The notes: generated by a model not told the origin, from the letters alone. Counted from the first letter of the whole stretch, positions 5,472 through 60,559 are shown. The stretch: 63,633 nt of DNA, filler included, from Hausera hauseri (GCA_046269625.1; 11 parts of 11 records of this genome joined end to end with filler, not necessarily neighbours in it), one strand, 5' to 3'. Made by a program: numbers and translations.

Positions 5472-5984
5472 TTACAAGATCGAAGTGTAACATATTCCGG
5501 TTATTTGGAAAGGAAAATTGATTGGCTTTCATTTAAACATTGGATCAAGTGCTCGCAGTCATTTTCAATGGTAATCTTTATATTTATACGAGTAATACAT
5601 GTTAAAAACCGAGTCTGGTTTGCATCTTAAACGCATTTCAACAGGTCGAGGTGGTTAAAAATCTTTCTCAACCGCCAATGTGAGTGTGGTGCCCGCGTCC
5701 ACCGTTGCCCTCCGTTCCATTCGATTGAGCAAGGCCGGGTTTTCCTCTGCCAGCGCATCGGGCGCATAGGTGGGCCCCGATTTTCCGCCTTGGAGGAAAA
5801 TGAGTATTCTTCATCTGACTATCCAAATCAAAAAGACAAAGAAAAATTTCAATCTTCTTCTTCCGAAAATCCAATTGAAAATGATCTAAAGAAGCTTCTG
5901 AATCTTCGTAGTTTTCAGAACATCCAAATAACAATCCATTTGCATTAACGGCAACGTTGTATTCTAACATAATCCCATTTTCAG

Positions 5985-6485
5985 GTGGATATAATTTCAG
6001 AATTGGTCATTATGATCGAATACTTCATATTTCTGATACTTGGTTTGCTCCACGCAAGTCATGATGTATCTAAAGTTATTAAGGCTCGCGAAAATGACCG
6101 GTACTACGAGACTCTTGCGCTTGGTTTACTGCGACCGGGTACCATAATTCCATTAGACGAACGAGATTTTAGTCCATTCAAATCCACATCCACGAATCTT
6201 CTACAGACCGTATCACAAATCGACCGAGAATCCATTTGTCCCGACAAAACATTACCAAATATTCAGCGATTGTGTCGCGATGATGAATGTTGTAAATTGT
6301 TGGGATTTCAGTTTTATTCCTCCGGAATAGACAAGACCATTTTAATACTGGTCAAAATTACCGATGTCAATGATCAGGAACCCCGGTTCAGTAATGTAAA
6401 AACTCCATTTGCGAAAATCCCCGAAAATGCATTAAATTTTGTTTACAATGATGTTTCGGTTTCGTTCGCCATGAAGATGAAATGA
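5985..6485 (+). pseudogene. Protocadherin-like N-terminal fragment (signal peptide plus first cadherin repeat)
   Basis: Hydrophobic leader, then IDRESIC, ITDVNDQEPRF and IPEN cadherin motifs; truncated after the first repeat. Confidence 0.65.
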
Positions 6486-6487
6486 AA

Positions 6488-7566
6488 ATGACTAGAGTAA
6501 GTTAATTATTAATAAAACAAATGTTATTGTAATGGATATTTAATTTTAGTACCAGTTAAAATAATTGTACCACTAATAATTTTTTTTCTGAAAAAAATTG
6601 AGAATTTCTAAGTTTAAAAATTTATCACTCTTAAGAAAAGAAGTAAAATAAGGTCAAAAGTACAATCAGATGGCTCTCAGAAGTCAGAAGATGAGATTCA
6701 GTATTGCATTTGTAGAAGTTCAGATGGAACTCGCTTTATGATGTAATTTTCATATTTGCATATAACAAAATCGATTTCGTAATTTTGATTTGCCTAAAAA
6801 TAAGTTCTAATTTTAGAGCATGTGATAATTGTGAAGAATGGTATCATGGAGATTGTATAAATGTAACACCAAAACAAGCAAATAATATCAAACATTTTTA
6901 CTGTCATCTATGTATTGGACGCAATCCGAGTTTGGAAATTGAATATAAAACAATAAAAGAAAATCGCCCAAGACTTCCAAATTTGAGGCAGCAAATCAAG
7001 AAGATAAATTTCTCTTCCGATGATGAAAATGATGCTGATTTAAGTTCATCAAGCACTCCTGAAAAGTCGTTCCCTTCCGGTAGAAGCAAAAGAACGACCC
7101 GAAAAAGATCTCGACCTTCCTTATCAGAATCGGTTAAATCTTTAGCCAAGAAACGCCGTGGTCGTCCCAAAGAAAAGCATGACGAATACGATGATGAAGC
7201 TACTGAAGATGAGATTGAAACATCTGGAATAGCTCCATCGATAAATGATTGTGCTCCTATCAGTATTTCGAATCATCCGGAAGATAGTGAATTGTACGGC
7301 AAAAAGTCATTTCGCAATCAGTTATCTAGTAATAATATATTCTGTGGTTCTTTTGTGCCTAGAACTCCGTCAATGGATGGTGTTATGAAAATATGCGGTA
7401 TGTGTGAAGGATGTAAATTAACCAAAAATTGCGGAAAATGTGATATGTGTTTGAAATGTTCGACGAATATAACTTCAAAATCCGTATGCCGAAAACGAAT
7501 TTGTCTCCGAAATAAATCAGATTCACACAATCAGAGACATCCGTATAACAAGGATTATCAAACCAT
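6488..7566 (+). CDS. CXXC1: CXXC-type zinc finger protein 1 (CFP1), 5' exons 6488-6496, 6636-6742, 6817-7566
   Basis: GT-AG introns splice in frame to MTRKRSK...[28 protein letters not shown] (PHD finger), followed by a CXXC finger CGMCEGC...CGKCDMC...CRKRIC. Downstream exons not seen. Confidence 0.85.
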
Positions 7567-8054
7567 GTTAGTGAATCAATTCTTGTTTTAATTTACTTTG
7601 TATTGATAATTGCGTAATTTGAGTAATGATTTTACGTTTGATTTTTATCGTAAATTAGTAGTAAACACAAAGTAAAAACGTATATATTGGAGAAATATTT
7701 TTAAACCGTTATATTGCATTTATTTTGTGTAGTAGTTATTAAAATATTGTATTAAGCATATTTTTATTCTGTATTGAACAAATATGACCTTCAATTATGT
7801 GGATTTATCATGTTGTTATTTACTTGAAGATACGACATTGACTAAATTTCATTTTTCTACTTCTGTTTATTGAACTTAATTATCGTTAAATTATATTTTT
7901 TAACCATTTAATTACATAAATATGCATGACACTAACATTGTTTTTTTAGAGTTATGTGTAACAAAGATAAGGAGTTACTAAAGATAGAAACACAGTTAAC
8001 CAATCATATTGGATAAAAATTTGGTCAGATAAAATCAGGGTCAAATATATTTTA

Positions 8055-10721: not shown

Positions 10722-11172
10722 TCTTTTCAAAAAATAAAGAACTTGTGAATAAATACTGAACAAGTTATAAAAATATCGATAAGATTTATGTACTTTATAT
10801 AAAACTACGCAAGCAAAATGAACTTTTCAAAAGACGAAGCACGTTTTTTTACAACACGTTGTACACTAGGAAGTCAAAAACCCAGTCGTGAACAGGATCG
10901 ATTCAATGGCCCCACTGTTGTGACGTCAGACCCCTCTCGAAAACTGGTTTCTTGGCCTTCTCTTAAAGGGGGTATTGGCCCGACCCGCTCGGCAGTTGGC
11001 CACACACTAGCGAGCGGGCTCACCGTGCATAAAGCAAAAATTACTACGGCTTTTGGCAAAAGANNNNNNNNNNNNNNNNNNNNNNNNNNNNNNNNNNNNN
11101 NNNNNNNTTAATTAATTAANNNNNNNNNNNNNNNNNNNNNNNNNNNNNNNNNNNNNNNNNNNNAAGAACCTA

Positions 11173-11735
11173 GTGCCACTAAGTGGAATTCTAACCAATG
11201 CTCCAAGTCCGAAACGCCCGGTCGGCAGACCTAGAAAAGCCGGAGAAGTTGACTATAACGGAGAGTTAATTAGAGAGCTAAGACAAATGTCGATTCCTAC
11301 CTTTAACACAGACAATGAAGAACTAAGCGAGTTAATGAAGAATTTAATACGTATCGTAAATTATTCAAACCTTCGAGGATATACATTAGATAAAAAAGAA
11401 AAGGCAATATTTAACGCAGCTAGGACAATGAGAAGTTCGCGTTTCAAACTGTCAAAAAGTAGCCTAACTGACGACGCAGTAGTTGGGAAAATTATGGTGG
11501 GAAATACGACAGAAGAGCTAAGGAAAGTACTATTGTACTTAGCAATCAAGACAAACCCAAATCGAGAAAATAAGTTCAACCGAGCTACGAGCATGGCACT
11601 AAAAGCAGCTAGGCAGCTTCCGTGCGACCAAAATTGTTTGACAGAGAAGACAAGAAGAACAGTAGTAATAATGGACTCGGAGACATAATACGGAATTTGA
11701 TGACAACGGATAATAATAACCGGAAAAAGGAATCT
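11173..11735 (+). pseudogene. Unknown polyprotein segment (ORF-X C-terminus) upstream of the glycoprotein
   Basis: PKRPVGRP...AARTMRSSRFKLSKS...EELRKVLL is conserved in the copy at 32761-33300 (-). Confidence 0.7.
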
Positions 11736-13677
11736 AATTGGTTAATCAGTTTGCTCACCATAATAATGCTGATATAACAGATGGGCGCCGTCACCGTCTA
11801 CGATTGCGATAGATTTAAGCTTGGACAAAAATAATCACTAATGAACCTAGAAGTATGTGAAGATGCCAGGCCACATAAATTGGAAACAAAGAAGAATTAC
11901 TTCCTATATCAACAACAAGAATTGATATCTTTGAATGGTATGGAGTGTATGCTGAGACGATCTCGTAGCATTTTCCATTGCGGATCAATGCACGGACATT
12001 CCTCGATAATTAAAACAACGACTCCTCCAACTCCAATGAATTTAGAAAGACAACACTGCAAACAGGCTCGAAAAACCGGAAGACTAAAATGGGATAGTAT
12101 GGAACTAGAGATGCAGCCTGGAAAGATAATTAGAGCATATAAGATAGTAGTCGGAAGACTAGATATGCATAATAGACAATGTAGCGGAACAGAATACGAT
12201 ACCAAAAAAGGACTGGAAGCTAACGTAATAGTAGTAGACTTTTACGAATCGGTGATGAGACTCCAAAAGGTGATGTTCCATAGCGTCACCAAGCTATATA
12301 CCGAGAATCAAAAATGTCATATACACGGCGGAACTTGTGCCTTCAGAAGCTCTGTCGTAATATGGGAACCGCCCTCCGGAAAAGGTTGTAATTTTATTAA
12401 GATTAACAAACTGAAATTTAATGAAACCACCGGAAAGAGATACATAGGCAAATCCGACGACAGTTCAACATCACGCGAAGGTGAATCAGAATATCATACA
12501 CCCACGATACTAATTTCTAATCAACATAAATTAAAATTCATAAAAAAGGAAAAGATTTCACGTTGTGAAGTAGTAATATTTACCACTAACTATGAAGCGT
12601 TTTTGTCGCAGAAACGGAAATAAACGCGCAAACATATAATCTAGAAACGCAATACATTCGAATTAAGGATTATCTGAAAAATCGGGACGATTACTTTTAT
12701 TATAAAGAACACGTCGGGATAGCCGAACTATATAACAAAATGATAACTAATGATTGCAAATTAGGTATAGAGTTTATGAGGACAAAATAGCTCTTATTTA
12801 TGCAAACCCTAAGTTAGTCTCACCAATCATTTCCGTGAGAGAATGGATCTTTGGTCGAGTTACTGGCGAAGTTTTGCTGACATATGAGTGTGAGAAAAGA
12901 GACGTACCAATTAATGTCAAATAAAAACGATGCATACAAAAACTTCCTATGATCTATCAGAACACTCCGCGGTTAGCCATACCCTCACTAGAGTGTTGCG
13001 AGACAACGAAAACACAACCCACAATCCTAAAGGACTGAAAGGCAAGTTTGGGTGAACCAATGTTTAGGCGTAGCGAAACGGATTGGATTAGTTTACCAAA
13101 CGGCGGTGTCACGATCGTCCCTAAAAAACTAACTGGAACTAATGTAGCGAAAAGAATTACCGACGACAAGTTCCAGGATATGGCACAAAAGGGCATTTAC
13201 AGACCAAAGGAGATCAAAGCTTTTAGACAATTTCTCGCTTTTCCACGGCAGCGAACACATGAATTAAACCGAGCTATGGCATTAGTGGTAGATGATACCC
13301 GTTATTAGGCTAAATGGGAATCTTTACTCGGTGTGAATCATTATCAGCAGGTGATCACAGAAATACTCTACAAAATATGGGGAAGATTTTTAATTTTTGG
13401 ACAAGCCTCATTAGGGTTTTTGGCTATATATGTTTTGGTACAGCTAGTAAAGGCAGTATTTCAAGCAATTATAAACGGATACGAAATATTCACGCTAACA
13501 GAATTTTCTTGTAAAATTTTAACCGCAATTATCGGACCCTTTGAAAAAATTCTGAAAACCTATGAAGAAAATCAATGGAAAAATGACGTTGAACGCCATG
13601 TCAACTACCATAATTACAAACAACGAGCAAGACCCACATTTCTATCGAAACGCAAAGCTAAGAAATTGACAACATGA
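11736..13677 (+). pseudogene. env: Env-like viral glycoprotein, chuvirus/gB-like class III fusogen, with internal signal peptide
   Basis: NWLISLLTIIMLI*QMGA|VTVYDC...SLMNLEVC...IFHCG, Cys-rich ectodomain, GIYRPKEIKAFRQFLAFP, and TM region WGRFLIFGQASLGFLAIYVLVQLVKAVFQAIINGY. These match chuviral glycoprotein motifs as I recall them. Confidence 0.8.
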
Positions 13678-14198
13678 AGAAATAGCTCCGATGATGACGA
13701 GCCTAAGGGAGGAGAAGTGATCCTCAGACAAAATAGACACAAAATTTATTCATTAATTAAGGCGTCCTTGCCCATCATCCCCCAACAGCCCCGATATATA
13801 AAGACTGCGATAAAACGTCAGTGATGTCATATAAATCAGAAAACCATCGAACACCCTTTAGATATGGGGACCCTTACGAAGAAACAAAACAGTACGAAGT
13901 ATTAAAGAAAATGAAAATCACTAATCAACAACGAGCGGAAAATGACCATAAACTATTGTACTCATCAAGAATAGCTCGTAATATAGAATCAAGATCGACA
14001 ATTTAGGGAATACAAGAAAGGGAATCGTTCCAAAAACCAATAATACAAGAACCATTATTTAGAAAAAACGCGGGTAACATAGCAATTAACGACTTATACC
14101 CGAACGAGGAACTAAAACAATGGACCGAAAACATCATTTCATCACCAGAGATCACAATAAACAGGCATAATATTTCTTCAATTAAGCGACCAAAGGAC

Positions 14199-14624
14199 GT
14201 GTCAAATCGTTACGGAACAGTTAAGGAAGGGAGACCCTTCACAAAAGTTGCCATTAAAGATGGGGAAGTCTATGCCTTAATCGACACCGGATTGGAAAAA
14301 TCATTTATTAAATTGGGATCAATACCCCCGACACTACGAAAACAATTACACCCAGCGTCATCGTCAGATCCAAGTAGCATAGAAGCCTTCGGGCAGGAAT
14401 CCAAACCAAAATTTAAGTAAAATCCAGTAGTGCAATTAATGGGTCAAATCCTTCAACACGAGTTTGTCATAATAGATCAGCTAACCGATAATGTAGTGTT
14501 AAGTTGCGATATACTGAAACAATTGTCCAATATCGCGATAAATTTGCATACCGGAAAAATACTTCAACTCGGACCAGCAAAAGGAATTAAAACAATGAAA
14601 GAAAGGAAACTAGGAGACGTATAA
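14199..14624 (+). pseudogene. Retropepsin aspartic protease
   Basis: YALIDTGLEKSFI...HEFVII...VVLSCDIL. Confidence 0.85.
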
Positions 14625-14891
14625 ATCCCCGTTGACGATCCCCCTGCTCAGAACCGAAATGATAAATTATGCTCAAATCCGGGAAGAAGACCAACCAGTA
14701 TACTTTGAACCACAAAAAGATGTTAACCCAAATATCAATACTCAATAAAATTTTGACAAGAGTGATAACAGGTCGGGTACCAATAAGATTAGTAAATAAC
14801 GCACCAACCACTGTAAGGTTATATGCCAATATTACATTGGGCCATACTTATAAGGTGTCAGCAATAACAGTAGAACAAAAAGCATACAAAT

Positions 14892-16396
14892 GTGCTGAAT
14901 TTCCACCTCACGTCGAAACTAAGTTTTCACCAGAAGCATACTGTCAATTTTACGAATTACTATGCAGATATAAGTCGATTATTGCCCAAAAAAGAAGATA
15001 TAGGTCAAGCAAAGGCTCTAAGGCTAACAATCCCATTAAAAAAACCTGGCTTAAATGATGAAATTGATTTGGAAGAGCAAAAGATGCCAAAATGGTATCC
15101 TCCGACCCATTCATTAAGGCCCGAAATAACTAAAGAGGTAGAACGCATGTTAAAGGCCGATGTAATACGACCAAGCTACCGGTCCTGGTACTCACCGATA
15201 CTCATGGTCAAGAAGAAAGGTACCACTAAACATGTATTCTGTATAGATTACCGGGCTCTAAAGGCTCTTATGATGGAGGACTCATTTCCACTACCGTCAG
15301 TAAAAGAAGCGTTAGATAGATTATCAGGAGCAAAGCGGTTAGCCACATTGAATTTACAATCCGGATACTGGAAAGTAAAAATTGAGGAAGACGATCGTTA
15401 CAAAACAGCGTTTAAGACGCACGACGGAGTTTACGAATTTAAGGTCATGCCGTTTGCTATAACAACCGGCCCAGATATCTTCACCAGAATGATGAATAAA
15501 ATGTTAATGGGACTCGATCACGCGTTCGCCTACTTAGACGATGTAATTATAGCATCGAAGACGGAAGAAGAACACCTAAAAACATAGAAGATACTCTCAT
15601 GCGGTTAAAACAGGCAGGATTGAAACTGAATCCCAAGAAATGTAAATGGGTGCAGAATGCTGTATCTTACCTCGGACATATAGTGGGAAAAGGAGGATCG
15701 AAACCAGATAAATCCTTATTGGGCAAAATATCAGATTGTATGGAACCCCAAAATCAGAAGGAATTAAGGCATTGGTTAGGCTTATGTGGATACTACACCA
15801 CTTATGTACCGGACAACTCGAAGATAAATGCACCATTATTTTGATTATTGAAAAAGGGAATCAAGTAGAAATGGACCGATATCGAACAAAAAGCGTTCGA
15901 CGAAATGAAGAAAATTCTAACAAGTGAACCAATAGTAGTAAGATATCCCGATTTTAATTTACCATTTATAACTAAAACAGATGCAAGTAAAGAGGGAATT
16001 GGTTACGAATTGGCGCGGAAACGAGAAGATAAGGAACTGGAACATCCGATTGCATACGGAGGACGATCACTCAAGAAGGCCGAGAAAAATTATTCGGTTA
16101 CTGAACTAGAGACACTAGCCGTGAAAGAAACCTTAAGGCATTTTAATGTTTATGTATACGGGCAGAAAATCATCACAGTTACCGATCACAAAGTCGTTAC
16201 AACGCTAAAAGGACGAGCTAATAACCCGGCATGTAAATTAAATCGGTGGATCGAGGAAATCTCACAATACAATATCGAATTTCAACATAAACTCGAAAGT
16301 AAATATATTAACGCAAATGCTTTATCAAGACTTAAGACAAAAACAAGCACGACTAAAACTATGAAGATAGCTCAACTCGAAAAATTGGTCGAATGA
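14892..16396 (+). pseudogene. pol: Gypsy reverse transcriptase and RNase H
   Basis: SPILMVKKK, CIDYRAL, YKTAF, FKVMPF, AYLDD, LNPKKC, YLGH, TDASKEGIG, YSVTELE, VTDH. Confidence 0.95.
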
Positions 16397-16399
16397 CAA

Positions 16400-17704
16400 C
16401 GGATCTGAACATTAAATAAAACTATCAAAATTTCTTCAGAGCAAGCTAAAGATAAAGTTATCCAACAAATAGTCAAATTCGTCGAGCAAGATGAAACACC
16501 GAAAGGACGCCAGCTAAAGAAACAATTACAAAGACACGGGCATAAATACTATGCATCAAATCAAGACAATATTTCATATTACGAACGAAAGGGACGGAAA
16601 CTAGTAGTCATTCTAAAGGGATTACGAACGGAAGTATTAATGGCCGAACATGATTCACATTTAGCTGGACACATGTCATGGAAGAAAACATTAGAAAGAA
16701 TACTGAATAAGTACTACTGGCCAAGCATTTATATCGACGTGAAAAACTAGGTGGACGCTTGAGAAGCATGTGCGACGAAACAAAAGAAGGTGAAAAACTA
16801 TATAGCAGAACTAAAACCAATCAATGTACCATACAGGCTTATGCAAGCTATGTCTATAAATATAGTAGGGCCCCTACCCACAACCCACAAAAATAACAAA
16901 TATATTTTGACATGCGTAGATCGACTAACACATTTTGTTGAATTAATAGCACTGATTAACCAGAAGAAAAAAACTTTAGCAGATGCAGTAGTGAGGAAAG
17001 TCCTTTGCAGATATGGACCTCCCGATCAAATATTAACTGATAGAGGAAGAAACTTTACGAGTGAGTTATTTGATAGAATTTTTAATATCTTCGAAATCGA
17101 ACGACTGACCACTACCGCTTATCACCCCAGTGTAACAGAATGGTCGAACGTATGAATGCAACCGTTCTACGAGTTTTATTGACAATAATCGCGAAGGATC
17201 AGAAGGATTGAGATAAATTTTTAGAAGGGGCATAATTTGCTATCAATACAACCCCACATCCGGCCACAGGATTTACACCATTTTTTATGATGTATAAAAG
17301 CAATATTACCTACGGACTTAGGAATGACTCCGTATTACGCAAATCCAGAAGATTTAGAACCGAATTTCGCGGAAGTTTTACAATTGAGATTACGAAGGTG
17401 TTGGGATATAGCAAAGACACTTACCCTCGAATATCAAGAGCAGTTTAAGAAACAGTATGGTAAGAAAGCCAGACCTCACGATTTTGAAAAAGGAAATTGG
17501 GTCTACGTGCATTATCCAGTCTCGAGGAAAAGTACGTCGTTAAAACTTACTAGTACCGGACGAGGACCTTACGAAGTTATCCGAACCAAAACAACCACTG
17601 TCTATATTAATAAAAATGGAAAAGAGGAGGTAGTATCTATACAGAGAGTTGTGGAAACCGAAATAAAAGGGGAAAAACGTTATAATTTGCGATCCAAAAA
17701 TTAG
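16400..17704 (+). pseudogene. Gypsy integrase (HHCC zinc finger, DDE core, GPY motif)
   Basis: HDSHLAGH...YYWP, GPLPTT...VDRLT, ILTDRGRNFTS, TTAYHP, GPYEV, RYNLR. Confidence 0.93.
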
Positions 17705-17757: not shown

Positions 17758-19146
17758 TAGGCCAATATCCTACGTGCAGATAAAATCTTAGCATTATCAT
17801 TAATTGCCTCTTATGTTCCTAGGACTAAAGCACAATGGTGGGATGACAGCGAATCCAGTCTAGCAAATGTATATGCGATTAGCATAGGTGGAAGGGAAGC
17901 TAAAATTAAAGAAGAACAGAAACGCCTAGAAGGACGAAAAGATGTAGAAAATCTGAAAATTATGAAAGCCTGCGGCACATATTGAAAGAAACCATGTATC
18001 TGGTTCAGAACTGACAAGGCAATAAAATTATATGAAAATTCGTATAAAATTTACTGATCAACTTAAGGAAACGGTAAAAAATTGCGAATTCAGTTACGAA
18101 ATCTATAAGAAATGTTGCAAACTAGAATTTGGACAAACATACAGATATGTAATACTTATGTATTATTTCCAGTATGAGATTGTCCGTACAGATATAAAAC
18201 CGCTGATTGAAATAGCTATGCCAAAACAGAGAATTTCAAACCAAACTAAACTAACAGATGTAATTCAAGATACCGACCCTCAAACGAAATTGCTAGATGG
18301 AAATATAATTAAGGTCTCCGAGGCTTTAGAAAACGCATGTATCAAGATTAAAACTAGAAACGGACTAACCGAATCACATTAGATCTCGGTTCGATTTATA
18401 TCGCTTGAAAAATCAAGTTTACCAACAAGATATTGTGCTATTAACCAATGGAATTCAAACCCGTGTTGTAGAATTCCCCAAAGACACAGATACAAAATAA
18501 AGCTCGATCTGTATAAAACCAGACCAAACCAACCAAGTAAATACCTAAGAGGATATCGCTTAGGAAGTCAAATGTGCAAAATTCCATTCAGAGCGACGAC
18601 AACAACTAGCACTACTATTAAAACCATTACGACAAGTAAAGGACCCGAAAGACGACCGGAAGGTATTCCTATTAAATACTTATTACACCGAAACAAGATA
18701 ATATTCTTTGTCGAAGAAAAATTAAACTATGATATAGAGATAAACTGTCGGACCTTATATAGTAGACAAAAGGATACTTGTAAAGAATACACAACAGATA
18801 GAGTATAACTCATTAAAATCTCAGAGAGAGTATATAATACAAATTAATGCAGCTGAAAAACATAATCAAACAATTACTTTACATACTTTAACGGAAAATG
18901 TTTACCCAGAATCGCAAAAATGTCAAAACACCGAAAATATAATCTCTAGGCGTAGCACAAAACAGAAACTATCTGATTTGACAACTTAACCCACTATATT
19001 GATCTTCGAAATGTCAGCATTTGTCCTAATAGTATTAAGCGCGTCATTTTATTTGATTGCTAAAAATTGTAAAAAACAGCGTAAAATTAAGGGGGCAGAA
19101 ATAAGGGTAGTATACCAAAGTGACTTATATGATAGAATAATCTGAC
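17758..19146 (+). pseudogene. Putative second type I membrane protein of the element (signal, Cys-rich part, Thr-rich linker, FN3-like segment, TM)
   Basis: ILALSLIASYVPRTKAQWWD signal, PCC...KIKLDLY, TTTTSTT linker, KIIFFVEEKLNYDI, TM near 19000-19060; conserved in 61910-63290. Confidence 0.65.
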
Positions 19147-19256: not shown

Positions 19257-21340
19257 ATGGCAATCAGAATAGAATCTCACAGCCAGACTGATATCGACAA
19301 ATTCCTACAAGAAAACGCTAAGGCAATAACCCCAAACTCCAAAACAATCTATCAACAGATCCATATAGAACTACAAGACAAAACATCAGTCGGCTATGAT
19401 CAAATAGATAAAATCCCTATACATCTAGCAGAAGAAGAAATTTATTACCGATTGACTGGACAACCGTAAAAATCGAAAAAAGGACGACAGTATAAATTTA
19501 GCACTTTCCGACTGAGTAACAGGAGTCTATGTGACTATGAGTTAGAATTTAGGATCGCAGCCCTACCCGTAAAATTGATGTTAGAGATTACCTGCGAAGA
19601 AATTCCAACGGTGTCCCTACACCCTTTAATATACCACCAATACTCAACAGAAGAACAAATAGAACAACATTCAGGATCATACAAATTGGTACAGGACGGA
19701 CGGAATATTCGCGTCATGGCGACGAATTATGGAGAAAAGGATAACAAAAATTTAACTCACATCGAAATTTCTATACGCGATATGAATGGAGTAGAAATTT
19801 ATTATAAGAAGATCACACTCCGAAAAAGAATAAATGACACCTTTGCCGAAATAACCAGAATCAGGAAGGAAGATTTAATTAATGGAAAAGACATCCGAAT
19901 TGTGGAGATGGAGTTAAATCATTGCGTGTATGGATGTATGATTGCAGGGTTCCAAGCCCAAAAGCAGATGGAGAAATTAAAAATAAACATAGCAGGAATA
20001 CGCGAATTTTGGACTCACCCAAAGATTAGAGAGAGAATGGATAATATGAATTGACCAGTCCCGATGACTATGGAAACCCAGTTTAAAACCATGCTGGAAT
20101 CCATGAGTGAAAACCTTTACAAAATCAACAGACAATTATCCGCATCTAAGCGAACTCAATACCCCCGAGACTTTTATGCCACGTTAAAATGGGACCATGA
20201 ATGGTCACTGTTGAACCCCAAACAAAATTTGCAAAGTAGACAAGCCCAAAAGAACTAAACCACCGTCATCGCAAAGAGTTTCAGCCCTATTTCCCAATAC
20301 GGATCATAGAACTAAAAGAAAATAATAGTATACAAGTCACCGTGTCGACTCAAGAGGACAAAAGGATTGTACATCCTACCCAGAACATTATTACGCACGG
20401 ATTCAAGGTACCAGAAACATCTCAGAATTGTCAGGAAACATCACCAAAGAAATTCAGACTGCTTAAAGAAAAGAAAACAAAATCGATTTTTAACTTCTTT
20501 AAAACGAAGGATAAAGAGACAAAACAAATCAAGAAGGATTCATTCGAGAATGAACAAAATGAGACTCACAGAAGTAAGTGTGTTGAGCAAGAAAAGAGAA
20601 AATTCAGAAGAAACACAGCCCAAACCAGCCCAGGATGACGAAAAAGATTGGCCCCGGATCTTAATAATGGCAGAATACGTAAGTTATGGGAAAATTAAGG
20701 AAGCCCTGTTGTACATATATATCATGCCGAAACTGGAACTACATGAAAATGCATACGCCCGAGTAGACCCAAAACTTGGAAGATACCTCACGCCAGTTTT
20801 TAAATCGAAAACGGAAACTAATAGATTGACAGTGCCCGTAGATAATAAAGCACGGATAAAAATGAAGAGACAATACAAAAGGATGGGAGTTCCTGACTTG
20901 GATGCCGAACAAGTAGTCGAATGGACTCTTATAACCGTAAATGGCGACGCTAGGAAAAGTTCCATAGACTCGGACCAGAAACAATTGCATGGATATTTGT
21001 ACAAAAGCCCAAAAGGACTCCTTTTCAAGAGATAACATGGGTCACGGATTGTGACTTAGATAACGATAATGGAAAATTTGTCCCGTATGCGAAGCCAATT
21101 TATGGCAAGGTTATATAGTTTTAGCAAATAGAAATTGCCGACATCGACATTATCGAGACTGTTTAGAGCAATGGACATTAGTCAATGGTAAAACTACTTG
21201 TCCAGTATGCCGAACAGAGGAATCGCAGCTGAAATATTTTGCCCGAGGAGAAAACAACCGAGTGGTTAAAATAAAACCAAATTCTGCTTATTATTTGAAG
21301 GCAGGACCCCATACTAGAATATGAAATTCTTCGTTAGATA
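19257..21340 (+). pseudogene. 3' accessory ORF of unknown function
   Basis: ORFs 19185, 19575 and 20064 share one frame separated by single stops, then frameshift into 20342/20367-21035. Preceded by a pyrimidine tract + AG at 19226-19243. The 3' end is approximate. Confidence 0.55.
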
Positions 21341-21439
21341 ATTCGCAAAGTGATCTACGCGAACGGATAGACGCATTACGATGCTCAGATCATAGCGTCA
21401 CCTCTCCTGACGCAATAGGCACATCCGAGGATGTCGCTC

Positions 21440-21451
21440 AGGAAGGAGAAA
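21440..21451 (+). promoter_or_regulatory. Polypurine tract
   Basis: AGGAAGGAGAAA directly before the LTR start. Confidence 0.75.
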
Positions 21452-22176
21452 TATTATAAAAGCACTTAGTTGGTTATAAAGAAACACTCAATCGACAACG
21501 ATTGTAAATATTATTTTAGTCGACAGTAAATTTAATGATTATAAGAGAGCACTTCAGTGACGAAAATTGCAATAACGCTAATTGTAAATATTATTTTAGT
21601 AATTTTAAGCATCATGGTGCGGATTGGGCCAACAATAATTGTAAATAAAGTGGTAGAGGAATTAATGGAATCGGGTAAAATTGATTAAAATGGTGAGAAT
21701 CGAAAATTAATGTGTAAATATTCAGACGGTAAACAAAAGAAGTATATATACTGAGTCGGAAGAAACAGAAGGGTAACAATAACATCGACTGTAGAGTTGA
21801 TTCGGAAGCCAGAAACTGAGAAGAAAGGAAGAGCCGACAAATTCGAGAGAAACCTATTGAAATCTTACTTGATTGAACTTATCAACTGTGGTAGTGATTT
21901 GTGGTATTAATATATTTTGTCTCTAGAAAATTATCTTATAGTTTTCCTTCGGCTCTTAAAGCTGATTTGAGTCACATTAAGGTTAAAATCTACAGTCAAC
22001 TATATAGGTACCAGAATTATTAAACAACGCACAGGACACGACATTTATTCTATCCGCACGTAAAGCATACATATTGGCACATTCGTTTAACGAGAACGTT
22101 AAACCGAATCTTCGTAGCTCAACAAAAATTTATGTTATATAGATGAGAGTGATAAGAGCCACCCTAATATATAACA
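21452..22176 (+). repeat. LTR (about 725 bp)
   Basis: Starts TATTATA (TGTTATA with one change) and ends TATAACA (inverted ends); PPT before, PBS after; TATATATA at 21743-21750. Confidence 0.8.
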
Positions 22177-22178
22177 TT

Positions 22179-22196
22179 TGGCGACCCTAGCAGGAC
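22179..22196 (+). promoter_or_regulatory. Primer-binding site, tRNA-Arg type
   Basis: TGGCGACCCTAGCAGGAC lies 2 nt after the LTR end and is complementary to the 3' end of a tRNA-Arg(TCG/CCG)-like tRNA. Confidence 0.8.
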
Positions 22197-22478
22197 AGTC
22201 TGTGCCTAGCTAGATACTATTCAGAGTCAAGTAACGACATACCGGCTATCAGCGCCATCTACACCAAGTAATTGTGGAAAGATTTAAAATTTGGGATATA
22301 AGTTATTGAACTTAAATTTAAAGGGATAATTCAGGACGAATACTGACAACCAAGTAAACGGTGAAGAAAAATCACCTATACGTCAGACGCGTAGAGTTAT
22401 ATATAAAGAAATAAATAAAAAATCAAATTCTGAAACTAGAGCTAAAATAAGTAACGTCGAACCAAGAATAACGCAAAC

Positions 22479-24055
22479 ATGATAGCAGATAATCCAGCCA
22501 TAGTGCAGAAGCTTGACATTTTTACATTTGACTCCTTGAATCTGTCATCATACGATGGTGACCCAAATGGACTAAACGACTTTTTAAGAACTTATAAGTT
22601 TCATGCAAAAGGTGCTAATCTCACTCCTGAAGTAACAATAAAAAGTTTATCACTATATCTAAAGAATTTAGCAGCTGATGCTTATAGCGAGCTTACTAAC
22701 GATGAAAAGAAAACTTGGTCCGCCCTGGTAGGTGCATTAAACCGTAAGCCATTACCAACAGTAACGCCGCAACAGAAACTTATGGCATTTTAGAACAGAG
22801 TGCAATAGAAGGGTGAATCAGTAACCCAGTTTGCATTTGCGTTAAAGAAACTCGCTAACAGTTACGTAAGTACTTTAGGATAGCCAACTTATTAAAAGCT
22901 AAAACAGATGCAGAACGTAACGCTTCGGAAAAAGTGACCCCACCTGATTTAGAAGCCATGATGACAACTCAGTTAATAAATGGCATATGGTCAAGAGATC
23001 TAGTTAAACAGTTGATTCTGGCCAGACCCGACAATTTTGAGAAAACGTTGCAATTAGCTCAAGATTTAGAGATGGCATTGGAGAGATATGCCAAACAAGG
23101 TAATAAATACGAAAGGAACAATGACGGTAATAATCGGCATAAAAACGGTAACCACGACAACAGACATTATAATGACAATACCCGAAACCGAGGTTTTAAT
23201 AATAGGAAGAAGAATCAAAGAGATAATAGAAATTTTAGTAATAATCGGAATACGTTCAGCTTGTACAATAAGCCGGGTTATAATCCTGACAGGAACCAAG
23301 ATAGTTACCGACTAAATAATAAATACACGGATAATCTAAATAACGATAATAGATATGACGGAGATAACAGACAATTACCACAAAACCAAAATAAGAATAT
23401 AAACAGATAAAAATCACCCGTGAACGAAGATGGCCGACAAAGGATTGTCCGAAACGGGAATTTAATTTGCTTTACATGTGGCAAAGAAGGACATATTGCT
23501 AGGTCATGCTCAAATCCTAAAAGTGTTGCATTTACGGAACCAAATAAAACAGGTATGATTAGAAATAACCCAGAAGCTATTTATGGTAAGCGAGGCGACA
23601 TAAGTATGATTATTGAAATGCAAAACTTGTGTAGGTCTGCAAGAAATATAGGCGAAACTACTAACCCTCAAGTCATAAAAGCTAGAAAAGAATATGAAGA
23701 GAAATTACGACTAATTGAAGTCTATCACGGACTAAGAAAGCCCCAAACCGAAGAAGAATATGCACTGGCACCAAACAACGCCAATATGGCGCGTAAAAAG
23801 TCTATTACTCAAGGGATAGTCCAGTCGGAAAAACAAACGACGTCTGTGAATGTCGATTTAGATGCAGATTCCGAAAAACATTACCCAGATAAAACAACAA
23901 ACGAAGTCGAAAGCGAATTTATGGGGCCTTCAGTTCTCAAAATAACGAAGAATAAAGGTAGAAGCCCATTGCTTAAGAGAAAATCCAAAACCCGTTCAAG
24001 ATCGCCCATTAAGAAGGACGTGAAAGGAAAAGGAGACTTCTATACCGCTATCTAA
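22479..24055 (+). pseudogene. gag: Gag with Asn-rich linker and CCHC zinc knuckle
   Basis: YDGDPNGLNDFL...YLKNLAADAY...W, QxxGESVTQF, QLINGI, CFTCGKEGHIARSC. Coding-like sequence continues to the contig end with no protease motif. Confidence 0.9.
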
Positions 24056-24496
24056 GGAGACAACCCGCCCTTAGACAAGCTTCAAAGGACTTTAGACACG
24101 TTGGAAATGTCAAATATAATAACCATTAACGATGAAATCAATGAAACTTGTCTGCTTCCCACTAGTGAGGAAGAAACTAAAGGAGACAATGACTTTGATG
24201 CAAAAAACGGAAAGTTTGACGTTCATGGAAAAATGCCGATAAATTAAAGAGAATGAGAATTAGATGTCACGATCCAGAGGTAATCCGACACAATCTAGAA
24301 GGACTTAAACAGATCAGTAAACAAGCAGATATATCCGGTAAAGAGCAACAATTTGGGGAGAAATTATATAAAAGTTTGAAATTATGTAGCGAAGGANNNN
24401 NNNNNNNNNNNNNNNNNNNNNNNNNNNNNNNNNNNNNNNNTTAATTAATTAANNNNNNNNNNNNNNNNNNNNNNNNNNNNNNNNNNNNNNNNNNNN

Positions 24497-25071
<575 letters not shown>

Positions 25072-30734: not shown

Positions 30735-32759
30735 ACAGAGTACATTTTATGCCTATTTATTCCTAAAAGTGCTTCTCCTACCTTAGATTCGTCATCATCT
30801 GAATTATTCCTTCGTGTAATAGGTTTTGTTAATTTTTGCTTCTGTAGGAATATAGGCCTTCCTGTTCGTTTACGATTATAGTAGCCGACATGGCGTTCTA
30901 CGTCCGATTTCCATCTATTTTTTTCGTATGCTTTCAAGAATTTTTCAAAAGGCGTTATGATTGCAGTCAGTATTTTACATGAAAATCCGGTCAATGTAAA
31001 TATCTTGTATCCATTTATTACTGCTTGAATGACTGCCTTAATCATTTGTATCAGAAAATATATAGCTAAAAATCCGGATGCGGCTTGACCGGAAATCAAA
31101 AATCTTCCCCAAATTCTATAGAGTATCTCTGTCGTTACTCTTTGATAGTGGCTTACGCCAAGTAATGATTCCCATTTAGCCTGATATCGTGTATCGTCTA
31201 TTACAGACGCCATATCTCGATTCAACTCATGTGTTCGTTGTCGCGGAAAGGCAAGGAATTGTCTGAAGGCCTCGATTTCCTTCGGGCTGTATAAACCTTT
31301 TGACGAGGTGTCTTGAATTTTATCATTTGTGATTCCCTTCGCGAAATTCGTTCCTGTCAATTTATTTGGGCGGCAATAATACCTCCATTTGGCAAACTAA
31401 CCCAGTCTGTCTCACTACGTCTAAACATAGGTTCTCTTAAGCTTGCCTTACAATCCTTAAGAATGGTTGGTTGTGTTGCATTATCCAATGATACTCTTGT
31501 CAACTGCGTAGCTAACCTGGGAGTATTTTGATAAATGACAGGAAATTCCTGAATGCAACGTTTTTCTTCTACGTTGATGGGTACATCTCTCTTCTTGCAT
31601 TCTTAGGATAGCAGTACTTCGCCTGTAACCCTACCGAAAATTCCTTCTCTCATAGGAATCATGGGAGAAGCTAACTCTGGGTTGGCGTATATGAGAGCCA
31701 ATTTAGTCCTCATAATTTCAGTATCTAATTTTCAGTCATTCATTATCATTTTGTGATATATTTCTGTTATCGCGACTTGCCGTTTGTGATAGAAGTAATC
31801 GTCTCTGTTTTTCAGGTAATTTTCAATTCGGACATCCTGCGTGTCAAATTTGTAGGCTTTTGCATTTATTTCTGTTTCTGCAACGAAAAATGCTTTATAG
31901 TTAGTAGCGAACATTACCACGTCACAACGAGAGATCATTACCTGTTTTTATAAATTTCAATCCATACTGATCCGAAATCAATATAGTGGGCGTAGGCTGT
32001 TCCGATACATCTTCGCGTGTCCTTGACTTAGTCTCAGATTTATCTATACATCGTTTTCCGGTAGTTTCATTAAATTTTAACTCTTTAATTTTAATAAAAT
32101 TACAGCTCCTTTCAGACAGAGGTTCCCATATTATAACAGAACTTCTAAAAGCACAGGTTCCATCTTGTAAGTGGCATTTTCGATTCTCGGTGTATAACTT
32201 GTCGACACCATGGAACATTACTTTCTGTGACCGCATCTCTGATTCGTAAAAAATCTACTACTACCACATTCGATTGTAATTCTTTTCCGGTATCGTATTC
32301 CGCTCCGTAACAATGTCCGCTGTGCATACTTAATCTTCCGGCCACTACCTTGTATGTCCTAATTATCTTTCCTAGTTGCATTTCTAATTGCATACTGTCC
32401 CATTGTACTCTTCCAGTCGCTTTAGCTTGTTTGTAGTGTTGGCGTTCTAAGTTTATTGGAATTAGCGAAGTGGTTGGCTTGATTATGGAGTAATGTCCAT
32501 GTACTAGCTTACAGTGAAATATGCTATGCGACAGTCTCAGCATGCATTCCATTCCATCTAACGATATCAATTATTGTTGTTGGTATAGGAAGTAATTTTT
32601 TTCTCTTGTTTCCAACTTGTGCGGTCTGGAATCTTCGCATACTTCCAGATCCATTATGGAATATCTCTGCCCTAGTTTAAACTTATCGCAATCATAGACG
32701 GTAACTGCGCTTATGTGTTTTATTAGCATCATTAAGGTGAGTAGGCTGATTAACCAATC
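30735..32759 (-). pseudogene. env: Second copy of the chuvirus-like glycoprotein
   Basis: DWLISLLTLMMLIKHISA|VTVYDC...GLYSPKEIEAFRQFLAFP...WGRFLISGQAASGFLAIY; collinear with 11736-13750 and open past the TM to the contig end. Confidence 0.85.
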
Positions 32760-34798
32760 TGACTAATTTTGCCGGTGGCCAAAATCCGTCGTTGTTAAAT
32801 TGCGTATTATATCGTCAAGTTTATTACTGGTCCGTCTGTCTTCTTCCTTGTCAAACAGTCTTGATCAATTTACTTCGCAAGGCATTCTTCTTGCTGCTTT
32901 TCGTGCTAAGCTTATAGCTCTGTTGATTTCATTCTCTCGGTTAGAGTTCACTTTGATAGCTAAATGTAATAATACTTTTCTCAATTCCTCGTGGGTGTTC
33001 TCTACCATGATCTTCTCGATTACCGATTCGTCGGTTAAGTTACTTTTTGATAATTTAAAACGTGAACTTCGCATTGTTCTAGCTGCATCAAAAATTATCC
33101 TTTCTTTATCATCTGATGTGTTTGAATAATTTACAATTCGTATCACATTCTGCATTAACTCGTTTCATTCTTCATTGTCTGCACTAAGAGTCGAAATCGA
33201 CATCTGTATCAATTCTCTAATTAATTCTTCGTCATAATCCACTCCTCGCGTTTTCTTGGGTATACCTACTGGACGTTTCGGTCTTGGACTCTTAGTGGTT
33301 GTTTCACTCAGTGGGACTAAATTTATGTCGTATTGTTCCTTATCCTCATCCGTTTGTAAGTACTCAAAATACATTGCAGCGTCTCGGACACCCATAATTT
33401 GTCCTACACATTGCTCCGTTTTAGCTTTACGTGTAGATTCTTTCTTTGTCTGTTCATTACCCATTATTGCCACTATCCGATTTGTTTCGTCGGGAATAAT
33501 TTTGACATCTATCAATTGTTCTAGGTCGTCGAGGATTTTGCCTGTAAAGTAAAATCTATAATTTACCTCATTTGTTCCGCCGTTATTTAATAACCATTCT
33601 CTTACGTCCCTCACATAGGAATATGTAGTTAATTTGCATACTTTTTCGTTCATCCACTCGGATGATATCATTACTTTCATCGCTACGTCTGGTCTAGCCT
33701 TCAAAATTTTAGCGTACTTCATAATCAGAAGTTTCGGCACCTTACTATAAATCGTATTCTCACTAGATAGTTTAGTTAGCGTCGGAATTAGTTGTCTTAA
33801 CTTATTTTTAGTAATATTTACGTTAATTAGTTCCACTAAATCTTTTTCAGTTAGCGCTAAGTCCAGAAGCATCTCCACATTGAATCTCCTGTCCTGCGGA
33901 CATGTTTCTATCTCGTTTCGTTGCAGTGGAGTCACGGGTTTTTCGGCAAATATTGCGTCAAAGTATGCATCCCATTCGGATTCGTTTCCAGCATCTGGAG
34001 GTCCATAGCCTACTAAAGCCGTATTCATTCGTTTCACGTTTTCCCTGATTTCTTTTAATCTTGGTTGAAATTCTTTCATCTACGTGGTTCGGGAGCCTAC
34101 TCCGTTTCCGCAGGCTTATTGAATCATTTTCAGTAACTCACCAAATTTGATAGAATCGATGCGCCCCTTTTGGTGATAATCCGTTAGTTCAATAATTACG
34201 TCTTTTTGCCACCTTTGTACTAATTCTCGCTTATTTTTAATCTATGACTCAGTAAAAGCATATTTGTTTTGATAGACTTCGAGCTTTTTTGTTAGTTCAT
34301 CCAACCTGGTTGCTCTTTGTTTTGTTTTAATACATGTTTCTTCTACTTTGTGTATCATGGGCATCAATTGTCTTATTTTCTCATCACTAATCTCTGCCAT
34401 TTCTACCAATAAATGGCTTTTGAGTCTGGGTCCATTGCATCCGACAATGTCTTTACGAATTTCTGTTCCAGAAAACTAAAATGTGTGTCGTTTTTTATTT
34501 TTGTCAACTTGGTATGAAAATTCTGATTTGATCCGGCCATCCATTCTTGTGGTTTATGCAAGAATTTTATTGCGTCCGTCATCATGTCTCGATGTTTCGG
34601 ACAGATGTCTAAAGTTTTAATGCCTTGGACAGCAATCTCGTCGATAGGTTTATCTGTTAAATGTTGGACTCCTTCTAGTCGAATAATTCTTAAATTTAAG
34701 TTTAAGTTGTAAATCATATTCCTCTTTTCTGTAAAGTTCGTCTCTTCGACAAATTTATAGATGTCTTTCAATATCGACGTTTCTTGTTTTCCTTTCAT
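32760..34798 (-). pseudogene. ORF-X region of the giant Gypsy (unknown segment upstream of the glycoprotein)
   Basis: ORFs 33165-34079 and 32865-33155 share a frame across one stop; the C-terminal part aligns with 11173-11735. Confidence 0.7.
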
Positions 34799-34944
34799 AA
34801 ATTTTTATGGTTGTAACGCTTAGAATTGAGTACGAATGTCTATTNNNNNNNNNNNNNNNNNNNNNNNNNNNNNNNNNNNNNNNNNNNNTTAATTAATTAA
34901 NNNNNNNNNNNNNNNNNNNNNNNNNNNNNNNNNNNNNNNNNNNN

Positions 34945-37900
34945 ATCAATAAACAGTTGAGTCTTTCATTTCTTTTGACTCTCTATTGGAATTATTCATT
35001 ACTTTTGCTGTGGATATTTATGACAAATTTAGCACTCAGCTTCTTGCGTTATCTATAGCTTCACATGCTAACCCATCTCTAGTAATCGGCCAAGATCTTC
35101 TCACTAAACTACGGAAAGCACATTCTATCTTAGCACCAATCCTACAAAATGACTATTGGATGCTTCTCAGAATTAATCTCATCAAAGGGAAAATTCAAAT
35201 ACTAGACTCTCTCTCGAATAATGATAATGCGGAGTTGAAACAATTCCTAGTCTCTCTATGCGAAACTTTACCAAAAATTCTGAACTGCGGTACCTTCACA
35301 TTCGAAAAATATCCTAAAACACTGTCAAAGCAAACAAACAATATAGACTGAGGCCCATATATTTGCGATTTTATAAAATATCTGTGTGATGAAAGATCAC
35401 TAGACTCGTTTGATCCAGAACAAGTACGGCACAAAGTGGCTCTGCGCCAAACTTTAAAAGCTCTCCCAAGCTGACCAGCGAAGATCAAGGGCGCAAATTC
35501 TATGCATTCATCCTTGAGAAGAATTACATGTTCCTATGCATGGAAGGAGATTGTCAATTTACTTCATACCACATCCGGACAAACCACAGTGACGCAAATG
35601 ATCCTCAACTGAGAATCTTATGCAAGTGCAAACGCTTCTACAAAGTGCACGAAACATTCTCACATACTAAAGACTGCATGAAATTGGACACGGCAAGCCG
35701 AAAACTTCTAAAAGACTGGAATTTTGAACTTCTATCGAAATTTAAATGCCAAAAGCTCATATGCTGCTTTCCCCAATGCCTCGAACAATTTCAGTGTGCG
35801 AGAATTTCAACGGACAATATAGAACGTCACTGGTCTAAACGTGACCATAAGGAGCTCACGCCTGAGTCAAACATACATTGTTTTGGCTGTCAAGAAATTT
35901 TACCTTACAAGAATCTTAGCAGCCACTACAACCAACACCACAAACTGACTCAAAGCGCCTCCAAACGCAAACTTGCATGACTATCCAAACCTAAAGCCTC
36001 ATCTATTGACTCTCTAGATACTACTATCAAGACCTTACTTGACAGATACCTACCCGCTACAGCAATGCTCTTTAATATTCAAGCGACAGCGGCACTACTA
36101 GCGAAAGATGAGGACTTCATCAAACACTCAATTTCATTTTCAGATTTCATATATTGAATATCTCTTCTGCTTAATTACAACTGCTACTGGACATCGAATG
36201 ACCTTCATTGGATCGATATCAGACGGCACTTGCAGCATAATTGATCCAGCAAATTCAGATAATCCTTTAAAAGCAAGTATATACGGACATATTTTAACTA
36301 AATTGTTCAACAGCTTTCTACGATCATCAAAGCTTAAATTCTCAGAAAATACCCATATAACACGAAAGGAAGAAACATGTCTCGACTGTGGCCCGATTAT
36401 CTGTGCTGAAATTCTAAACATCATTCAAGAGGCTCCAAATCGACAATGGGACATCAGAAGCCTCAGATATGAGTTGAAGAAAATTCAAAATCATCAATTT
36501 CGACAGCCGGAAACTGAAAACTCAAAAATCAGAAAACACTCTATAGGCATCGGAAAACAAGCTGCAAGTGACTTACTGCGATTACTGTGGTTAGCTAACA
36601 CACAAATGGCAGCAGATAAAATCTATGAACACATTCTTCAATTGCGCTCTGACAAACCACTGCCCCAAAATATCAGACACGATCCAAAGCTACCAGAACG
36701 GGATCAAAATTGCGAAAACATCCGAAAATCCTATTTAAAAGACAAAAAAGGAACAATCGAAAAATACTCTATGCATCCACACTTACGGAGTTCTCCAACG
36801 AAGAAACAATTGTCGCACATTTCATAAAGAAAGGCAACCCATCAAAAGCCGTTAATTGGACGGAAAGCTTCCCAACAATTCAAGGGTCGGAATTCCAGTT
36901 TCATAGTCCATCGGCTGAAGAAATTATGACATGCTTGAAGAGATTAAAACATTCCGCGGCGGGAGAAGACACAATCTTTTATCGAGACTTCTTGTATACT
37001 GATCCTGAAGCAAAACTCATGGAATACCTCTTTAACAAAGTGGTTGAAAATTGTACGGCTCCGACACAATGGACACGTTTCAAAAACTTGCTAATTCCAA
37101 AAAATATAAAGATGGCTCTTATAACAACATCGACTCTTGGAGACCCATCGCTCTACTCTCGTCAGTATACAAAATTCTGACACGTTGCCTAACACACTAG
37201 CTGCAATACTAGATTAAAGCAGTAGGACTTTTTCACCCGTTTCAGAAAAACATGGGCCCATACGAAGGATGCTCGGTACACAATTTTACTATAACATCAA
37301 TTTTCCAATATCAAAGACGCAATTAGATCCTCCCAATTCATGTGGCCTTCTTGAATATTTGCGAAGCATTTCCAACAGTGCTGATATGCGTCAACCTTCG
37401 CAAAATGGGCTGCCAAGAAAAATAATTATCTTTAATAGAAGCGCTTTACTCCAAAAGCGATTGCGCATACATTTGCGGATCGATCAAAACGGGATACCTA
37501 CCAATTCGCACTGGTGTTCGCCAAGGTTGTCCACTTTCGATGTTACTACTCAGCATTTGAATCAACCCACTTCTGATGGAGTTGTCGAGTGAGCTAAGCT
37601 TTGGATACAGTTTACACCAACAAAAAGTTGCAGTTCTAGCATACGCCGACAATTTGGCACTTATTTCTCAAACTCAGAACTGGTTGCAACAAATGATCCA
37701 ATGTGCGGGGAGGTTTGCTGAGAGAATCAATATAACTTTTAATCCGAAGAAATGTGGTTATCTTAGCCACAATCACACGCATTCTTGGGATCTCATAATC
37801 CACGACCAGCCTATCCCGATTATCAAAAGTGGATAATCCTACAAATATCTTGGAGTAAACTTTTCAAAACGAGATAAGACTTCACCAGTCGAATTAATGC

Positions 37901-39993: not shown

Positions 39994-40378
39994 TTGTCTG
40001 TCTGTCTGTCAATCGATCGAAAATCGTACGACGACGACGTTTGTTTATAGTTGCAAAGCTAACTGATCTACCACGTCCACGTTTTCTCATCAAGCCACTG
40101 CCAAGAAATTGTTTTTTGACTGATTCAACGACCCTCTGTGCAGCGCTTTTTATTTCGGACAAGGCATGTATTTTCAGTGATGGTAAAATTGATTTGTTTT
40201 CATATAGTACATTATGTGCGGTTTTTACTGCCAAGGCTCCAGTACGCTTCAACACCGGAAATTCTAAACGTGCCAATGTACGCAACCATCCAGAGCCGTA
40301 CTGTTTACCGACGAAATACTGCAGTTTCCCGCCCTGCTGCGGTTTATTGTAAATGGATACGATTTCGGAATCAATCAT
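39974..40378 (-). CDS. Maverick basic core-like protein
   Basis: QQGG...FVGKQYGSGWLRTLAR.FP.LK motif and Arg-rich tail; lies just before the capsid gene. Confidence 0.7.
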   Translation of the reverse strand: MIDSEIVSIYNKPQQGGKLQYFVGKQYGSGWLRTLARLEFPVLKRTGALAVKTAHNVLYENKSILPSLKIHALSEIKSAAQRVVESVKKQFLGSGLMRKRGRGRSVSFATINKRRRRTIFDRLTDRQTNGTCKI

Positions 40379-41455: not shown

Positions 41456-41491
41456 CTCGATGATGATGATGATGATGACGCAGTTTGTTTA

Positions 41492-43620: not shown

Positions 43621-43699
43621 TACAACAACTAGAACGAAACGTAAGTGAAAGATTCTGTAAACTGGGGCAGAAAGATAAAAACCATGCACCCATATCGCC

Positions 43700-60529: not shown

Positions 60530-60559
60530 CTGTAATAAAAAAGTCAGCTTAAAGAAATA

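Follow-up and report, generated by a model that had tools for sequence, protein, structure and literature searches.

A decayed Burro-like Ty3/Gypsy element of Hausera hauseri with a chuvirus-type fusion glycoprotein upstream of the protease

The window, that is the whole stretch of 63,633 nucleotides of Hausera hauseri DNA that was analysed, consists of 11 separate contigs joined by N-linkers and contains the remains of a decayed, multi-copy Burro-like Ty3/Gypsy element. Its active form was likely one polyprotein in which a class III fusion glycoprotein (G) was placed between Gag plus cargo and the protease. A probability of roughly 0.8 is assigned to this reading, which draws directly on the identified domains and their order, the fold of the fusogen, purifying selection across ORF-X, signal, G and tail, and the existence of relatives with a single ORF.

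Three copies of the element were found in the window. Copy 1 occupies the plus strand of a 13.2-kb contig (11164-24396) and comprises ORF-X, a signal, G, protease (PR), reverse transcriptase (RT), RNase H (RH), integrase (IN) and a post-integrase protein. Copy 2 (30735-34844, minus strand) is located on a separate contig and presents a longer ORF-X, the signal, G and the start of the linker, while copy 3 (60542-63260, plus strand), on the separate contig 59643-63633, carries the integrase followed in frame by a second membrane protein. Identity to copy 1 reaches 72.6% over 2,605 columns for copy 2 (30738-33319, minus strand) and 70.4% over 1,480 columns of the integrase region for copy 3. In the 827 codons of ORF-X, signal, G and tail that could be aligned between copies 1 and 2, six stops occur in copy 1 only and five in copy 2 only, and none of the 11 is common. 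The dN/dS over these codons is 0.09 overall (0.12 for the 181 codons of ORF-X, 0.06-0.12 for G and 0.26 for the tail with the linker start), all values being rough because synonymous sites are near saturation; in a control with the frame shifted by one, 60 common stops and a dN/dS of 1.2 were obtained. Because none of the stops is common to these two copies and dN/dS is 0.09, the breaks are ascribed to decay, and the element copies in the window are dead. One integrase stop, at 17233, is common to copies 1 and 3. In run X1, from which the window may itself derive and which is thus no independent source, 24,200 contigs map to the 13.2-kb contig with all 30 bins covered, and from this number and cover it follows that the element family is abundant. 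At the stop within the signal, 7,773 of 7,780 of the X1 depth disagree with the window, and several X1 contigs show indel differences at the frame breaks of the window's G.

G extends over 11790..13674 on the plus strand as a chuvirus-type (Monjiviricetes) glycoprotein interrupted by stops and frameshifts, with its anchor at about 13417-13461. The domain scan of the broken frames, in which X was placed at stops, matched PF24664 (Monjiviricetes_fusion, cut-off 27 bits) in both halves: the N-half (11727-12620) with E 7.5e-19 and 67.6 bits over profile positions 5-282 of 653, and the C-half (12781-13869) with E 2.3e-23 and 82.5 bits over positions 352-634 of 653. An AlphaFold model, made for the N-half only from an alignment of 59 rows, had a pLDDT of 85.5. 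Its best Foldseek match was the G of a chu-like virus (E 4e-17, TM 0.58-0.64), and among solved structures herpes gB (E 2e-6) and baculovirus GP64 (E 2e-5) were met at TM of about 0.3-0.4. By profile and predicted structure, then, G is a class III fusogen, as the first-pass annotation had proposed.

The same annotation was right in placing the fusion glycoprotein upstream of PR-RT-RH-IN: G, protease, RT, RNase H and integrase follow one another on one contig and strand. The protease (14226..14525, plus strand) is a retropepsin-type aspartic enzyme (PF00077, E 6e-05) with its DTG at 14283. It is followed at 14753..14864 (plus strand) by a probable remnant of the spacer that separates PR from RT in the relatives, recognised at the expected place by a weak profile match (E 0.024). 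No dUTPase domain was matched between PR and RT of the window element, where Burro has a dUTPase-like domain. Decayed RT, RNase H and integrase occupy 15207..17700 (plus strand; PF00078, PF17917, PF17919, PF17921, PF00665). Their Ty3/Gypsy order and Gypsy-type RT and RNase H assign the pol to Ty3/Gypsy; it is not of the BEL/Pao type, having a YLDD motif and Gypsy-type matches, in an RT tree composed without BEL rows.

Upstream of G, the cargo region between gag and G is represented in copy 1 by the 3' part of ORF-X (11167..11735, plus strand), which is helical, contains a GRPR motif, is broken in frame near 11625 and begins close to the contig start at 11164. In copy 2, ORF-X includes a ubiquitin/SUMO-like module (33453-33692, minus strand) present by three weak, agreeing lines, none above a curated cut-off: a ubiquitin match at E 0.07, 22% identity over 143 aa to the corresponding module of the related locus L002 (pairwise E 4e-06), and Atlas leads to PF11976/PF00240 at 0.85-0.86. 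A Bcl-2-like domain gave no significant match in the window's ORF-X by profile, Pfam or Atlas; in one relative (P0134) a weak Pfam Bcl-2 match precedes G (E 0.00096). Between ORF-X and G lies a hydrophobic, signal-like stretch (11736..11789, plus strand) with one stop at 11775 and a predicted cleavage before VTVYDC. A similar stretch precedes the start of G in 12 of 16 relatives, namely those in which the start motif was found. The proposal that this signal is internal and continues ORF-X in both copies holds for the hydrophobic stretch itself and for copy 2, where ORF-X enters the signal in one frame with scattered stops. Copy 1 has the frame break near 11625 and, just upstream of the signal at 11700, an ATG in frame; this ATG is missing from copy 2 and counts against the single-polyprotein reading.

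The linker from the G tail to the protease (13675..14225, plus strand) is present in full in copy 1 only, which counts against the single-polyprotein reading. Its first stop, at 13675, is private to copy 1, as had been claimed: it is absent from copy 2, and 1,786 of 1,923 of the X1 depth, on 50 contigs, differ from the window there. Beyond it the coding sequence was said to run to the DTG protease with one frameshift and one more stop; the single frame change, near 13866, was found, but the further stops are two (13822 and 14004). These two stops and the frame change lie past the end of copy 2, which reaches only to the position corresponding to 13751. In X1 no indel is listed at the linker at a share of 40%, the cover being thin at 13780-13860, and two X1 contigs join across parts of it (13711 to 13839 and 13761 to 13846), from which it follows that the linker varies among copies. 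The same ancestry could therefore be reconciled with gag-X-G and pol expressed as separate units, through a frameshift, read-through or splice within 13760-14000 that would lower Pol relative to Gag as in retroviruses; the frame change, the two further stops and the X1 joins are what such an arrangement has in its favour. It is nevertheless considered unlikely, given that the G clade has an open frame from G into the protease motif in 14 of its 17 rows, that the first linker stop is private and that no slippery site happened to be noticed.

The single-polyprotein reading is strengthened by the relatives. A HMMER search with the C-half of G collected 196 proteins at E 0.001, the best of them long; a word-based search with the same half for longer proteins gave none at E 1e-10 among 1,453 candidates. 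Almost all of the G relatives are metagenome proteins. One of them, P0125 (HBK71150.1), is entered at NCBI under a Flavobacteriaceae MAG and is likely a eukaryotic contig binned with a bacterium. Of 15 long or top relatives scanned, nine carry G and, behind it, a protease domain within one ORF. The same holds for P0275 (4,844 aa), which has several proteases and ankyrin repeats, and for the loci L001 and L002 described below. The ORF continues through RT, RNase H and integrase in P0125, P0133 and P0246, gag features precede G in P0132 and P0135, RT-RH precedes G in P0140, and no pol domain was found in P0142, P0144 and P0217. A second, weakly hydrophobic stretch past the G anchor was seen in P0125 and P0135. 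A locus search with P0134 gave two loci from 31 candidate stretches. In L002 one ORF of 3,703 aa encodes gag, two CCHC knuckles, a ubiquitin-like module and G, followed by two proteases, RT, RNase H, integrase and a further C-terminal stretch, so the suggested gag-X-G-PR-RT-RH-IN polyprotein does exist in the family; L001 is similar, and an exonuclease ORF lies behind both. Two to six tandem protease-like domains follow G in P0132, P0133, P0275, L001 and L002, and one in the window element.

Downstream of copy 1 several accessory parts were recognised on the plus strand. An ORF at 19470..20219 is possibly a degenerate DEDD exonuclease like that behind L001 and L002, the match being weak, with 21% identity over 80 aa at a pairwise E of 0.004 and, by profile, an E of 0.021 at 2% probability, and a RING finger follows at 21076..21213 (PF13639, E 1.2e-06). 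The sequence CA, two bases and TGGCG (22175-22183, with TGGCG from 22179), in the stretch 22175..22190, likely marks where an LTR ends and the primer-binding site of a next unit lies. No direct repeat was found in 21300-22520 and the window holds no second LTR for comparison; no tRNA genes were detected in the window and no LTR pair in L001 or L002. At 22480..24396 (plus strand), cut by the contig end, there is a gag (PF03732, E 0.0038; PF00098, E 1.3e-05) with a CCHC knuckle at 23468-23512. It is 33% identical to the L002 gag over 108 aa, also matches the N-terminus of P0131, and is best read as the start of a next tandem unit of the same family type. The end of this gag does not overlap copy 2, and in none of the window contigs is gag joined to ORF-X. 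The placing of G between Gag and protease is borne out by relatives such as L002, but in the window itself no gag is seen upstream of G. The size of at least 15 kb once quoted is a sum over contigs, the summed coding span (10,167 + 1,514 + 1,917) being 13.6 kb, plus a gap and LTRs.

The descent of G and pol was addressed by two trees, both obtained by quick methods without bootstrap or any Burro sequence and with long window branches (1.69 and 1.78). In the RT-RH tree, built from 127 rows with P0089 omitted, the window element is sister to five of six G-polyproteins with an SH-aLRT of 92, P0246 standing apart from the others. In the G tree (72 rows of at least 560 aa, P0140 left out) it falls inside a clade of 17 rows with support of 99; 14 of these have a protease motif after G in one ORF, and of the remaining rows the two other than the window's stop a short way behind G. 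A search with RT-IN returned generic Gypsy pols of 27-44% identity, with a G domain in none among the 120 matches listed. As both trees place the window element with the same polyproteins, G and pol descend together, with no nested insertion or private capture. It had been supposed that G and pol belong to one element, and the agreement of the trees confirms this; the accompanying idea of an independent envelope capture has to be abandoned, as the window G nests inside a clade of G-then-protease polyproteins. By this placement the glycoprotein is inherited with the clade. That a chuvirus endogenous element or another envelope was inserted by an unrelated Gypsy pol, or captured independently, is largely refuted and very improbable, even though the best viral fold matches of G are chu-like virus glycoproteins, G shares only about 29% identity with the relative closest to it, and chuvirus G fragments often adjoin Gypsy fragments in arthropods according to the available passages of PMC10084718. 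Apart from the trees, the Ubl module of ORF-X, the gag and the post-integrase domain are all of the same family type, and selection acts on a collinear X, G and linker in copies 1 and 2.

The architecture, which was presented at first as new, has already been catalogued in Burro/GYPSM1 (PMC6431247) and in flatworm gag-env-pol elements with a gB-type envelope (PMC13524379), as far as the available passages of these papers go. According to those of PMC6431247, Burro1-4/GYPSM1 of Schmidtea mediterranea and a relative in Dugesia tigrina have an in-frame env between gag and pol, in the order gag, CCHC, Ubi2/SUMO-like, BCL2, env, PR, dUTPase-like and RT, within one huge ORF. The Burro env matches arthropod and fish mononegavirus glycoproteins, the interior reaches 25 kb with LTRs of several kb, and decayed copies are found in related genomes (PMC6431247, same passages). 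Judged against this description, the window element resembles Burro in the env between gag/cargo and PR, the CCHC gag, the ubiquitin/SUMO-like cargo before env, the PR-RT spacer and the decayed copies. The position of env is X-G-PR in the window and gag-G-PR in the relatives; env shares one ORF with gag and pol in L002 and P0125, and X and G are in frame in the window. Unlike the Burro so described, the window element has a single protease, no Bcl-2, BIR, MATH or ankyrin domain detected in the window, and a coding span of at least 13.6 kb compared with up to 25 kb, and the term giant, formerly applied to it, is modest in that comparison. It sits on a long branch, away from the core of its own relatives.

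Envelopes of the HSV/gB type are known in Gypsy elements across animals, the order being GAG-ENV-POL in nematodes, bryozoans and flatworms, and a chuvirus-like glycoprotein is carried by 114 Gypsy elements of arthropods, although elements with the gag-env-pol order do not constitute a single clade (Chary and Hayashi, PMC13524379, available portion). Smed_errantivirus_1-6 of that study share with the window element a Ty3/Gypsy pol, a class III env upstream of pol and flatworm hosts, and the rows of their env domains I-II have motifs and cysteine spacing in common with the relatives found here, by eye only; the word "polyprotein" is absent from the main text of PMC13524379 in the form available. 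Non-canonical nematode metaviruses (Sacco et al. 2022, via its citation in the available part of PMC13524379) likewise have an RNA-virus glycoprotein upstream of pol, as in the window, in nematode hosts, and are likened here by description only. Atlas virus of Ancylostoma, as the available passages of PMC9094657 describe it, also has its envelope inside a single Gag-Pol-Env polyprotein (2,828 aa), but differs in being BEL/Pao with a class II phlebovirus-like, C-terminal fusogen. The layout of classical errantiviruses, with an F-type env as a separate 3' ORF, is not that of the window, where a class III env lies 5' of PR and an FN3-like protein at the 3' side.

In Anakin BEL/Pao elements the envelope occupies the 3' position. 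These belong to the same glycoprotein family but have a BEL/Pao pol and mosquito hosts (PMC7642597 and PMC10084718, available passages).

Behind the integrase of copy 1 a second predicted membrane protein was found (17782..19060, plus strand), with a signal-like stretch, an FN3-like ectodomain, a Thr-rich stretch and a transmembrane segment from about 18993. Its counterpart in copy 3 (plus strand), with the FN3-like domain at 62823-63065, a Thr-rich stalk and a transmembrane segment from 63176, is in frame with the integrase, and a signal-FN3-like-transmembrane protein follows the integrase in frame in copy 3 and in all 7 of 7 relatives. Between copies 1 and 3 the ectodomain has a dN/dS of 0.33. 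The FN3-like fold was tested on copy 3. By sequence, Pfam fn3 was matched in copy 3 at E 0.091 only; no Pfam fn3 match was obtained in the post-integrase proteins of L001 and L002 and no meaningful match in a sequence search of PDB. The hhalign comparison of window and relatives gave a probability of 15% and E 0.0017. The profile used on this domain had been built from 7 repeats chosen by one motif of the analyst's choice. An extra signal, FN3-like repeat and anchor were seen between two of the proteases of L001 (L001:4748-5300), a third membrane passage inside pol, and a hydrophobic insert occurs at a comparable site in P0275 (residues about 2095-2145).

The topology proposed for the active element is based on hydropathy and standard ER translocation only. 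Gag and ORF-X with its ubiquitin-like cargo would be made in the cytosol, the internal signal would send G into the ER lumen, where signal peptidase would free its N-terminus, and the G anchor would stop transfer so that PR-RT-RH-IN would be cytosolic again. A second signal and anchor behind the integrase would put the FN3-like protein on the same membrane, its luminal N-terminus likewise released by signal peptidase, and owing to this second signal-anchor protein the chain would pass through the ER membrane four times. The cytosolic parts would be cleaved by the element's own protease. Particles may bud with G as the fusogen that would join them to target cells, and spread from cell to cell like an endogenous retrovirus; the FN3-like protein may be a receptor binder or a decoy. 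Alternatively, G may have ceased to be a particle fusogen and serve instead as cell-fusion cargo, or as the membrane anchor, of a retrotransposon that stays inside the cell and assembles on the ER, since equimolar Gag-G-Pol synthesis would presumably tether Gag and Pol to this membrane; evidence of Burro particles or infectivity was not found in the available literature passages. Such a role is quite improbable, because the whole G ectodomain and its cysteines are kept under selection as strong as that on the integrase (dN/dS 0.06-0.12 compared with 0.095).

For the second surface protein, by contrast with the gag-env-pol layout, we could not find a description in the available portions of the literature. 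The signal-FN3-transmembrane protein behind the integrase is not mentioned in the available Burro text (PMC6431247), and no post-integrase protein was met in the gag-env-pol errantiviruses of the HSV/gB type in the available part of PMC13524379. It is tentatively suggested, as a possibility less likely than its negation, that Burro-like elements are retroviruses with two glycoproteins, both released from a single polyprotein that passes the membrane four times. In these, the class III fusogen lying between gag and pol would be accompanied by an FN3-domain type I membrane protein behind the integrase, acting as the fusogen's receptor-binding partner or as a cytokine-receptor decoy; the window element would then be a deep branch and the pair ancestral in the clade. 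Herpes gB, too, has receptor-binding or partner proteins (gD, gH/gL). We know of no other retroelements in which binding and fusion are split between two unrelated membrane proteins, and such a split would follow if the attachment-partner role were true.

The window also holds features outside the element. A papain-family cysteine protease with an I29 propeptide (24497-25071, minus strand) has an uninterrupted frame on a contig of about 41% GC; it resembles kinetoplastid enzymes of the cruzipain type, and the contig may therefore come from another organism. CXXC1-like PHD and CXXC fingers lie in one frame at 6716-7588 (plus strand), and the nine named proteins among the best 11 of 43 matches are all from flatworms, with no planarian among the named. 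On the assumption that this contig and those of the element belong together, the host of the element is therefore probably a flatworm. Close to them, a signal-bearing ORF with cadherin-like motifs (DRE, DVND; 5973-6482, plus strand) was taken by eye for a protocadherin, with no Pfam match at E 0.01. Two overlapping ORFs at 40374-41488 (minus strand) share their contig with an integrase core (43114-43698, minus strand) and look, in our estimation, like the minor capsid (penton) protein of a Polinton/adintovirus. Zinc-finger and RT-like pieces at 35414-38687 (plus strand) resemble by eye an R2/NeSL-type non-LTR element, with no Pfam match at E 0.01. A second decayed Gypsy element (PR-RT-RH-IN; 46500-49879, minus strand) does not group with the G-polyproteins, and a 630-bp repeat, 66% identical, is present on two contigs (44273-44900 and 56273-56884).

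Because the surprising layout is already published, the window copy adds a divergent, dead member to it. By fold, selection and trees it gives independent support to the view that the env of Burro-type elements belongs with the chuvirus-related class III fusogens and was passed down together with pol. For the attachment-partner reading, planarian Burro1 may serve as a live system for testing. What may matter in the little-studied biology of this clade is a polyprotein that would be cut by signal peptidase and by its own protease, with Gag:Env:Pol output fixed at 1:1, and a second surface protein that is conserved and FN3-like in fold.
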